This document shows, piece by piece, positions 22,364 through 24,508 of a stretch of DNA of 64,000 nucleotides. The notes beneath the pieces are model-generated. The model was not told where the DNA came from. It worked only from the letters and a program-made list of their open reading frames with translations, and ran no database searches. Position 1 is the first letter of the stretch. Every line of letters begins with the position of its first letter. This stretch comes from an uncultured Thioalkalivibrio sp. (GTDB lineage: Bacteria > Pseudomonadota > Gammaproteobacteria > Steroidobacterales > XN24): contig CAYWYS010000002.1 in NCBI GenBank assembly GCA_964462675.1, positions 42,110-106,109 of the forward strand. The letters are read 5' to 3'. Both the position numbers and the translations under genes were made by a program.

Positions 22364-24508
22364 TCAGTAAACGTCGTGCATCGTGTTGTAGATGTTGAAC
22401 TTGCCGGTGGGCGTGACGATGCGCGGGTCGTCGATGACGTGCTTCAGCTTGCGCGTCTTGTCGTCGACCACGACGATTGCGGAGCGCTGGTCCATGGTGT
22501 TCCACACCGAGAACCAGACCTCGTCGCCGGCCTTGTTGTACTCCGGCTGCACGACCCGTTTCGGCCCCGGACCCAGGTTGGCCCATTCGGCGATCGGCAG
22601 GACCACGAAGCCGGCCTCCAGGTCATTGATGTCGAACACCGCGATGCTCTGGCTGACCTTCTCGTCCGGGTTCAGCGGCGTGTCGACCCAGAGGTTCGTC
22701 GACTTGGGGTGCGTCTTGACGAACAGTGAGCCGCCGCCCTGCCCCTGCAACACGCGCACGACCTTCCAGACATGCTCGGCATGGCCCTGGGGGTCAGTCG
22801 CAATGAACGTGATGTCGGCATTGCCGAGCGCCGAGGTGATCCAGACCGGGCCGTACTTCGGATCATTGACGTTGGCGCCCCGGCCCGGATGGGGAATGCG
22901 CTCCACGTCGATCAGTGCCGCGAGCTTCTGCTCCTTGGCGTCGACGACGGCGATCTTGTCCGACTGGTTGGCCGCGGTCAGGAAGTAGCGCTTGGTCACG
23001 TCCCAGCCGCCGTCGTGCAGGAAGCGCGCGGCGCCGATCGTGGTGGTCTTGAGCGCATCGATGTTGCTGTAGTCGACCAGCAGGATCTGGCCGGTTTCCT
23101 TGACGTTGACGATGAACTCGGGATGCTCGTGCGACGAGACGATCGCCGCGACGCGCGGCTCAGGATGGTATTCCTGCGTGTCGACGGTCATGCCGCGCGT
23201 GGAGACGATCTTCAACGGCTCGAGCGTGTCGCCGTCCATGACCACGTACTGCGGCGGCCAGTAGGCACCCGCAATCGCGAAGCGGTCCTCGTAGCCCTTG
23301 TATTTCGAGGTCTCGACCGAGCGCGCCTCGAGGCCGATCTTGATCTCCGCGACGCGGTTCGGCGGGTCCGCCCACAGGTCGATCATGTCGATCTTGGCAT
23401 CGCGGCCGATCGTCATCGCGTAACGCCCGGAGGCCGAAGGGCGCGTGATGTGCACCGCGTAGCCGGTCTCGACGATGGAGACGATTTCCTTTGTGTCGCC
23501 GTCGATGATCGCGATCTCGCCCGAGTCGCGCAGTGTCACGGCGAAGAAGTTGTCGATGTTGCGCTTGTGCTGCGGGCTGGTCGGGCGCTTCTCCGGCGGC
23601 ACGAAGACCTTCCAGGAGGCGCGCATTTCCTGCATGCCGAACTCCGGCGGCGCCGGCGGCTCGTGCTGCAGGAAATGCGCCATGGCCTCGATTTCGGCTG
23701 CCGTCATGTCGCCGGAAGTGCCCCAGTTCGGCATGCCGGCCGGCGAGCCGTAGGTGATCAGCGCCTTGAGGTAGTCAGTCCCCTTCGGGCGGGTGACGTC
23801 GGGCGTCAGCGGCTTGCCGGTTGCGCCGTGGCGCAGCACGCCATGGCAACCCGCGCAGCGCTCGAAGTAGAGCTCGGTCGAACGCGCCCATGCCGCCTCG
23901 GTGATCGGCGGACCCTCGGAGTCGACCAGTCGGCGGGCCGTCTCAGGATCCATGCCCAGCGGCGCGCCCTCGTACTTGAGCGCTGCGGCGCCGGCCACCG
24001 GGTGGTCACCCGGGCCTGCAGCAGCAACCGGCGCGCCGCCACGCGCCTGCGCGACCTGCGCCGCCTGGATTTCACCGCCGGGGTTGTCCCAGTTGTTCAG
24101 CACGAAGGTCAACGCGTTGGCGATGTCGGCATCGCTGAGATATGCCATCGGCGGCATCACGGCATTGAAGTTCTGGCCGTTGACGACCAGCGGTCCGGAC
24201 AGGCCGTTGAGGATGATCTCGACGAGCCGGTCCTGGTTCGCGGCAATCCAGTCCGAGTTGGCGACGGGCGGAAATGCACCCGGCAGCCCCTTGCCCTCAG
24301 GTCCGTGGCAGGCCTGGCAGACGTTCTGGTAGACAGTGCGGCCCGCGGCGATTCGCTGGTCCTTGGACTGGCCCGCCGAAGCCACCTCAGCAGCGTGCAC
24401 TGCCGTCGCGGGGTCCGCCTTCGGCGTGGCGGCCTGCTGCTGCCTGGCCTCGCAGCCCGAGACCGACAGCGCGGCTAACAACGCCAATACTATCAGACGG
24501 ATAGACAT
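22364..24508 (-). CDS. nirS: Cytochrome cd1 nitrite reductase with a lipoprotein signal and an extra N-terminal cytochrome c domain
   Basis: '[21 protein letters not shown]', 'YWPPQ', 'VNVKETG', 'FLHDGGW', 'IPHPGRG', 'TPTGKFN'; a second CxxCH (CQACH) near the N-terminus; lipobox VSGC. Confidence 0.95.

Follow-up and report, generated by a model that had tools for sequence, protein, structure and literature searches.

The 64,000-nt stretch analyzed here (the window), from contig CAYWYS010000002.1 of an uncultured Thioalkalivibrio sp., encodes a 714-residue cytochrome cd1 nitrite reductase, NirS, which carries an extra class I cytochrome c domain at its N-terminus, is predicted to be lipid-anchored, and is paired with a TonB-dependent receptor. 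Fixed nitrogen is committed to gaseous loss by two enzymes, of which NirS is one, and the nirS gene is a standard marker in environmental surveys. The explanation we consider best, and hold with reasonable though far from full confidence, is a self-contained operon comprising a tethered lipoprotein NirS with the domain order cytochrome c–cytochrome c–heme d1 (c-c-d1) and a dedicated heme-family receptor that supports NirS maturation. Coordinates of all features are collected in Table 1.

The catalytic part of the protein closely resembles that of Pseudomonas aeruginosa. Residues 175–714 align end to end with residues 6–543 of mature P. aeruginosa NirS (1nir, 1bl9, 5guw; E = 1e-254; 65.2% identity), a likeness (65% over 540 residues) that takes in the heme ligands, the catalytic His residues, Tyr10, and the fold. 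Specifically, the heme c ligands Cys218, Cys221, His222, and Met259 correspond to P. aeruginosa Cys47, Cys50, His51, and Met88, the heme d1 ligand His353 corresponds to His182, and the catalytic His498 and His540 to His327 and His369; these heme c, heme d1, and catalytic residues are invariant across the family, as represented by 56 diverse homologues. The motif set that separates NirS from its paralogues NirN and NirF (PMC10999283, supplement) is present in full (CAGCHG at 218–223, LHD at 497–499, and PHPGRG, with Pro third, at 539–544). An AlphaFold2 (AF2) monomer model had a predicted local distance difference test score (pLDDT) of 76, with the propeller and the N-terminal cytochrome modeled confidently and the NirS c domain poorly. 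Foldseek searches with this model returned P. aeruginosa NirS as the top match (template modeling score 0.83–0.89 of target) and no solved chain spanning all three domains. Judged by these correspondences, the window protein is a complete Pseudomonas-type cd1 NirS core, and it is predicted to reduce nitrite to NO. A GGAGG 7 nt upstream makes the ATG at 24508 a credible start codon. What the window NirS adds to the Pseudomonas enzyme are 170 N-terminal residues comprising the lipobox, a tether, the cytochrome c domain, and a His-Pro linker; as a precursor it exceeds the 568-residue P. aeruginosa protein (chain 5guw_M) by 146 residues.

Pfam assigned Cytochrom_C to residues 53–139, Cytochrome_CBB3 to 206–280, and Cytochrom_D1 to 317–709 (E = 2e-144), and the translation has a first CxxCH at 64–68, VMPPM at 117–121, and a second CxxCH at 218–222. 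Residues 27–163 match the cytochrome c domain found at the C-terminus of the three-domain copper nitrite reductases (CuNiRs) of Ralstonia pickettii (RpNiR) and Pseudoalteromonas (PhNiR) (E = 3e-34 to 4e-36), with about 50% identity to the RpNiR domain (3ziy residues 329–462; E = 4e-36). In a neighbor-joining tree of the domain, which is short and makes the tree indicative only, copies fused to the copper reductase NirK nest among those fused to NirS. On this evidence the extra domain is of the same family as the CuNiR-tethered cytochrome and a true homologue of it. An identity with the soluble cytochrome NirM was rejected, as the c551 model scored 36 bits against a cutoff of 118. An original prediction for positions 23900–24508 (nirS residues 1–203), made from the letters alone, had proposed an excess of roughly 150 residues over the typical enzyme, the order cytochrome c + cytochrome c + cytochrome D1, and a resemblance of the extra domain to those fused to some CuNiRs; the first two held, and the third proved stronger than proposed.

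Residues Cys64, Cys67, His68, Val117, Met118, and Pro119 of the extra domain were invariant in the 56 homologues, with Met118 the probable sixth heme ligand. Because its heme-binding Cys, His, and Met are invariant, the domain is expected to be redox-active. A helix with the motif AVHxAE at residues 36–41 is conserved in the family (Val37, His38, Ala40, and Glu41 in >90% of the same homologues) and missing from RpNiR; together with the linker residues His169-Pro170 it appears family-specific and suggests additional interactions. RpNiR (3ziy) and PhNiR (2zoo) share with the window NirS the cytochrome family, the motifs GLPGxFPP, VNGxxYxxVMPPM, and NxWxNPGG, and a long linker to the core. They differ in having a cupredoxin trimer as core instead of a d1 propeller dimer, the cytochrome at the C-terminus instead of the N-terminus, and type 1 Cu instead of heme c as the acceptor, and RpNiR lacks the His-Pro motif as well as AVHxAE.

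The fusion is widely distributed. The identical 714-residue protein was found on an independent Logan contig, and the locus recurs nearly letter for letter in sludge and wastewater metagenomes. A protein search, with clusters counted at the 90% identity level, returned at least 120 clusters of 692–729 residues (93–100% query coverage, 67–94% identity), and both CxxCH motifs were present in all of those listed. In a genome survey using one genome per GTDB species and the N-terminal domain as query, at least 594 stretches encoded relatives. The best 80 were examined, and in 43 of them the domain lies in frame directly upstream of a cd1 core; at the remaining loci it sits on the C-terminus of NirK, which was recognized from its Cu-ligand motifs, HNIDLHG and YVYHCA. 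The two nitrite reductases thus draw on a single cytochrome family, fused at the N-terminus of NirS and at the C-terminus of NirK. The 43 fused loci belong to Lysobacterales, Steroidobacteraceae, Chromatiaceae, Woeseiaceae, Wenzhouxiangellaceae, Marinicella litoralis, Arenimonas caeni, A. malthae, an Arenicella chromosome, and one Acidobacteria metagenome-assembled genome (MAG). The cytochrome domain might have turned out to be a separate gene in close relatives, as the original prediction allowed, but the fusion was a single open reading frame (ORF) in every relative examined, isolates included. An artefact (read-through, frameshift, or chimeric assembly) by which a long ORF joins a separate cytochrome gene to nirS is ruled out by the independent contig, the clusters, the 43 species, and the invariant linker residues; we found nothing in its support and give it practically no weight.

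In a more distant survey at the 50% identity level, several NirS representatives (36–51% identity) also had an extra N-terminal Cytochrom_C match, so that by domain content the c-c-d1 architecture is recurrent and common across deep NirS lineages. Two proteins at 36–42% identity, P0244 (808 residues) and P0268 (789 residues), match cytochrome c a third time and extend about 130 residues further at the C-terminus, and their architecture may be c-c-d1-c.

For Chloroflexi, Schwartz et al. (2022; PMC8756737) described a "C1-C2-NirS" with an extra N-terminal cytochrome c, proposed to substitute for NirM and stated to be unique to that group. It shares with the window protein the overall c-c-d1 order, a likeness known from architecture alone, and neither a lipoprotein signal nor a receptor linkage is reported there. 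Since the architecture occurs in Gammaproteobacteria and other lineages, our results contradict the published Chloroflexi-only statement, which does not hold. In the literature searched we found no paper on a proteobacterial tethered-cytochrome NirS, a lipoprotein or membrane-bound NirS, or a tethered cd1 enzyme. The original prediction had allowed that the architecture might be common and already characterized; common it is, and as far as we found it is unstudied. This form of NirS is widespread in Gammaproteobacteria of sludge, sediment, and soil (Lysobacterales, Steroidobacteraceae, Woeseiaceae, Chromatiaceae, Marinicella, Arenimonas, and Elongatibacter). With its own cytochrome and predicted lipid anchor, and traveling without the usual nir accessory genes, it changes how nirS-only genomes are to be read. 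It also offers a natural tethered heme-heme-heme system parallel to the well-studied tethered CuNiRs.

The lipobox V16-S17-G18-C19, also read in the original prediction, fits the pattern [LVI][ASTVI][GAS]-Cys, and in 110 of 120 homologues the signal peptide likewise closes with a lipobox-type Cys; the other ten form one group with AxA-type cleavage sites. NirS is thus probably lipid-anchored at a membrane. Residue +2 is Glu in the window NirS (family tally: Ala 38, Gly 32, Glu 14, Asp 14), for which the +2 rule of Escherichia coli would predict the outer membrane, as it would for most relatives, though the rule is not universal. No report of a lipid-anchored cd1 reductase was found in the literature searched. 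The nearest parallels are the outer-membrane lipoprotein NirK of Neisseria, AniA, which has an N-terminal lipid anchor and flexible tether but depends on copper and has no fused cytochrome, and P. aeruginosa NirF (PMC3694632), which has a lipid anchor and tether but is a d1 biosynthesis protein. Three-domain NirK-cytochrome c ORFs of Lysobacterales (loci L014, L024, and L079) also have lipoboxes (..LGGC, ..LAGC, and ..ISAC), and lipid anchoring therefore seems to be a lineage habit for both nitrite reductases.

The Ala/Gly-rich stretch leading to the core holds Asp168-His169-Pro170 and Tyr179, and was predicted to be disordered (pLDDT <50 at residues 159–188). His169, Pro170, and Tyr179 were invariant in the 56 homologues. 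Tyr179 aligns with P. aeruginosa Tyr10, an arm residue extending to the d1 pocket of the other subunit. His169-Pro170 lies N-terminal to the start of the mature Pseudomonas enzyme, and His169 has no counterpart in either solved enzyme. The His and Tyr of the linker, noted in the original prediction, are therefore present and invariant, but its comparison with the His17/Tyr25 arm of Paracoccus cd1 was rejected: the Paracoccus chains begin to align only at query residue 201 (chain residue 48), and, with Tyr179 matching Tyr10 and heme c retaining its Met ligand, the arm is not of the His17/Tyr25 type.

The original prediction had also inferred a minimal two-gene module. This was borne out, and the partner gene, which had gone unrecognized, encodes a heme-family TonB-dependent receptor. 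As the gap between the genes is only 18 nt and contains a Shine-Dalgarno sequence, and a terminator-like hairpin follows nirS, we read receptor and nirS as a two-gene unit closed by that hairpin; the same 18-bp gap occurs in locus L002. The receptor has a signal peptide ending SPAQA/AD, a TonB-box-like LEPVVVIS after it, an FRAPP...NPEL box, and Pfam matches to Plug (116–226) and barrel (334–759). Among solved structures it is closest to PhuR, the heme receptor of P. aeruginosa (8the; E = 2e-70, full length), orthologues in loci L004, L015, and L050 exceed the TIGR01786 cutoff, and the box, as GFRAPP...ALPNP(D/E)L, is nearly invariant in 119 receptor homologues. The receptor thus belongs, by sequence, to the heme/hemoglobin-receptor family.

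Its association with the fused enzyme is close. For GTDB species loci flanked by at least 3 kb of sequence on either side, a PhuR-like receptor lies within 3 kb of 22 of 28 fused nirS genes and of none of 26 NirK-cytochrome genes (Fisher p = 5e-10). Three arrangements occur, with the receptor gene upstream on the same strand, downstream and convergent (Steroidobacteraceae), or upstream and divergent (Arenimonas). Three of the six fused loci without it carry a different, siderophore-like receptor in the same upstream position. L016, L063, and L073 are carriers that lack the receptor. The linkage is also reciprocal. The receptor subfamily is small (587 matches at E <1e-30), many of its members lie on contigs equal in length to those that carry NirS, and all four distant receptor homologues sampled (38–46% identity) adjoin a tri-domain nirS, including that of the isolate Elongatibacter sediminis. 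Other neighbors change among the compared relatives while the receptor-nirS pairing stays. The literature searched contained no mention of this linkage, which as far as we found is new.

Like the cofactor-supplying TonB-dependent transporters PhuR/ShuA (heme), NosA/OprC (copper), PqqU, and BtuB, the window receptor has a plug and 22-strand barrel; PhuR is its closest solved relative, and it carries the FRAP/NPxL box. In NosA-NosZ (copper and N2O reductase) and in PqqU with the periplasmic pyrroloquinoline quinone (PQQ) dehydrogenases, a receptor is likewise tied genetically to a periplasmic cofactor enzyme. Unlike the PhuR/ShuA/HemR type, the window receptor family has no Fur signature, no invariant His ligands, and no nearby PhuSTUV-type partners, and has FNR/Dnr boxes instead. 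Neither ABC importer nor heme oxygenase genes were found beside the receptor in the window or among the neighbors in the relatives compared.

FNR/Dnr boxes (TTGAT-N4-ATCAA) are enriched upstream of the receptor genes, with a mean best score of 2.0 mismatches vs. 3.5 in shuffles (0 of 200 as low), and four loci have perfect boxes there. Fur boxes were not enriched across loci, and a Fur-box reading of an AT-rich upstream patch was rejected on that account. Taken together, these results indicate that the receptor is wired like a denitrification gene and not like an iron-starvation gene. The AT-rich block of Table 1, which sits within the over-extended 803-codon ORF, looks like an operator and is a candidate for one.

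Unlike that of P. aeruginosa, the window nirS has no adjacent nirM, nirC, or nirF-N and shares its operon with the receptor. No nirM, nirC, nirF, nirD/L/G/H, nirJ, nirE, nirN, nor, or nos gene was found in the 64-kb window, where the typical linkage of nirS to the d1 genes nirF, nirN, nirJ, and nirE is thus lacking. Within ±10 kb of about 45 related fused nirS loci there was no NirF/NirN-like paralogue, and most cassettes have no nirM or pseudoazurin gene alongside.

In the mechanism that we propose, NirS would be exported by Sec and lipidated at Cys19, Ccm would attach the two c hemes (Cys64/67 and Cys218/221), and heme d1 would be inserted in the periplasm. The dimer would form with a Pseudomonas-like exchange of arms, placing Tyr179 at the d1 pocket of the partner. 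On its flexible linker of ~20–40 residues, the extra cytochrome would serve as a built-in electron entry or relay, electrons passing from a membrane or soluble donor to the N-terminal heme c, the second heme c, and then heme d1, and the extra heme would reduce dependence on soluble c551 or azurin; as the original prediction had it, the fusion may take the place of the soluble donor (NirM or pseudoazurin). The tether would hold NirS at the membrane, near its donors and NO reductase. The receptor, which in most lineages would be under an FNR/Dnr-type regulator instead of iron starvation, would most likely carry an iron tetrapyrrole through the outer membrane to the periplasm for maturation of the three-heme NirS.

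Several observations weigh against this explanation. The AF2 monomer leaves the position of the extra domain unreliable, the linker and the NirS c domain being poorly predicted. The ten homologues with AxA-type sites are not lipoproteins, so anchoring is not obligatory. The window receptor falls just below the family cutoffs (284 bits for TIGR01785 and 283 for TIGR01786, against 317 and 324), and an invariant His is absent from the 119 receptor homologues, in which only Tyr202 and Tyr598 are invariant Tyr residues. Chromatiaceae-type loci use the siderophore-like receptor, which fits a general iron supply equally well, and the sublineage of the window has no good FNR box (best match in the window, four mismatches). 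For RpNiR, activity is lower with the tethered cytochrome and the part it plays as a donor is under debate; this work cautions against treating tethered cytochromes as simple donors (PMC13324648). Finally, one Chromatiaceae MAG (locus L063) keeps nirT and a cupredoxin gene beside its fused nirS, which means that other donors may still serve.

Of the alternatives, the one that survives best, and which we regard as possible if on balance doubtful, is that the receptor is an ordinary heme or iron channel under anaerobic control, denitrification enzymes being heme-rich, with no specific tie to NirS. Such a channel is hard to reconcile with a linkage so tight and reciprocal to one receptor subfamily of only 587 detectable homologues, or with neighborhoods devoid of cognate periplasmic-binding, ABC, and heme-oxygenase genes and receptor promoters not enriched in Fur boxes. 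To our knowledge, moreover, the canonical nirS operons of P. aeruginosa, P. stutzeri, and Paracoccus have no such receptor. What speaks for a general supply is that two unrelated receptor types, heme-like and siderophore-like, occupy the same position, that hemN and Crp/Fnr or Rrf2 regulators are among the neighbors, and that iron limitation is known to impair denitrification (PMC9409073).

A second alternative concerns the extra cytochrome, which could serve for regulation or gating, or for docking (e.g., to NO reductase or another partner), and not as the point of electron entry, as has been argued for RpNiR. The low activity and complex roles reported for the tethered domain of that enzyme (PMC13324648) are in keeping with this view, as are the family-specific invariant residues outside the heme pocket (AVHxAE and His169-Pro170) and the separate donor genes retained in L063. 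We nevertheless think it rather unlikely, given that the heme-binding Cys, His, and Met are invariant and that most cassettes are without a nirM or pseudoazurin gene.

Less probable again, to our minds, is a more specific role for the receptor, namely salvage of heme d1, or of a late precursor such as dihydro-heme d1, that other denitrifiers release, with apo-NirS loaded in the periplasm. In that case a cassette carrier could do with few or no nirE/DLGH/J/F/N genes and would bypass the approximately eight-gene d1 pathway, so that two to three genes might suffice for nitrite respiration or detoxification, a scenario that is speculative to a similar degree. The heme-family receptor accompanies the d1 enzyme and in no case the copper enzyme, in both directions of the comparison (four of four in reverse), its wiring is of the Dnr/FNR and not the Fur type, and it has no adjoining inner-membrane heme importer. 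The absence of NirF/NirN-like genes near the ~45 loci and of nir accessory genes from the window points the same way, as does the periplasmic insertion of d1, in the compartment where such receptors release their cargo, and the organism comes from dense denitrifying sludge and wastewater communities. PqqU provides a precedent of cofactor import for periplasmic enzymes (bioRxiv 10.64898/2026.04.27.721047). However, the d1 genes may lie elsewhere in the genome, as the searches covered the window and ±10 kb of related loci; hemN, typical of ordinary anaerobic heme synthesis, adjoins the cassette in L004 and L016; Chromatiaceae loci use the other receptor type; and the literature searched yielded no support for d1 uptake. 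If the receptor of the proposed operon does supply NirS with a tetrapyrrole, which might be heme d1, denitrification would have its first example of cofactor cross-feeding, and the presence of nirS in genomes seemingly unable to make heme d1 would be explained.

Table 1. Features of the receptor-nirS unit in the 64-kb window.
Feature	Position	Strand	Basis or remark
nirS, precursor of 714 residues, cytochrome c–cytochrome c–heme d1 propeller	22364..24508	minus	ORF, Pfam, PDB matches, AF2/Foldseek
Predicted signal peptide with lipobox LSVSG-Cys19 (residues 1–19)	24452..24508	minus	Read from sequence
Low-complexity tether from the putative lipidated Cys to the first domain (residues 20–35)	24404..24451	minus	Length and sequence vary among homologues; pLDDT <50 at 13–31
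Extra class I cytochrome c domain (residues 36–157)	24038..24403	minus	Match to RpNiR domain, invariant heme residues; pLDDT ~70–94
Flexible linker and Pseudomonas-type N-terminal arm (residues 158–200)	23909..24037	minus	pLDDT, invariant columns, alignment to Tyr10
Canonical NirS heme c domain (residues 201–290), CAGCHG 218–223, Met259	23639..23908	minus	Alignment to P. aeruginosa, Pfam
Heme d1 eight-bladed beta-propeller (residues 291–714), His353, His498, His540	22364..23638	minus	Pfam Cytochrom_D1, residue mapping
Spacer upstream of nirS, 18 nt, Shine-Dalgarno GGAGG at 24516–24520	24509..24526	minus	Sequence; no room for a terminator
Terminator-like hairpin just after the nirS stop, 13 pairs (12 G-C), T-rich tail	22321..22352	minus	Sequence
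PhuR-like TonB-dependent receptor of the heme/hemoglobin family, ~748 residues from Met56 of an 803-codon ORF	24527..26773	minus	Pfam, NCBIfam, PDB match
AT-rich operator-like block TAAATGATATATA..GCATGAATA upstream of the receptor gene	26844..26871	minus	Invariant in the window, L002/L003, and L006 amid otherwise diverged DNA

A weak hairpin of eight pairs with a T-rich tail (24536–24554, minus strand) lies at the end of the receptor gene, before the ribosome-binding site of nirS, and may be an attenuator or a chance match. Contigs from sediment metatranscriptomes were set aside as evidence of fusion or co-transcription, because they cover only the cd1 core and diverge at about position 23870 into other nirS genes.

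A frequent, fuller form of the cassette in relatives has a divergent regulator (Rrf2 with SirB, or of Crp/Fnr type) followed by receptor, nirS, and a porin. The last is an AlgE-like outer-membrane beta-barrel (PF13372, with a weak Opr-porin match) encoded after nirS in many relatives (e.g., L004 12187–13419, L005 12207–13445, and L086 10567–11820) and missing from the window. It is a candidate outer-membrane channel for nitrite or other anions. It accompanies NirK-cytochrome genes about as often (12 of 26) as fused nirS (14 of 28) and is therefore not specific to the heme enzyme. In Arenimonas (L024, L026, and L039), a single genome encodes both NirK-cytochrome c and cytochrome c-NirS, with about 3 kb between the two genes, along with receptor and porin. 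Locus L089 (299–4762) has a COX1-family oxidase or NO-reductase-like gene, SCO1, CtaA, and a Crp/Fnr regulator immediately upstream of a receptor-nirS-porin cassette. The Chromatiaceae MAG locus L063 (5869–12049) encodes, on one strand and without the receptor, a canonical nirS, nirT (NapC/NirT tetraheme), an EB_dh-like protein, a cupredoxin, and the fused nirS, the cupredoxin gene being directly upstream of the last.

Past the terminator-like hairpin in the window, msrB (21724..22245) and msrA (~21098..21727) follow nirS on the minus strand, an arrangement found only in the closest relatives, L001 and L002; signal-like sequences at their N-termini suggest a periplasmic pair of methionine-sulfoxide reductases. 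Elsewhere in the window, a lipoprotein (LAGC) with RoxA-like and di-heme cytochrome c domains is encoded at 30648–32051 (minus strand) and adjoins a CrtC-lipocalin-domain protein. The host may also oxidize hydrogen, as the window holds genes for the large (41060..42793) and small (42841..44169) subunits of a NiFe hydrogenase on the minus strand and hypA, hypB, hypF, and hypE-like genes at 47424–53179 on the plus strand.

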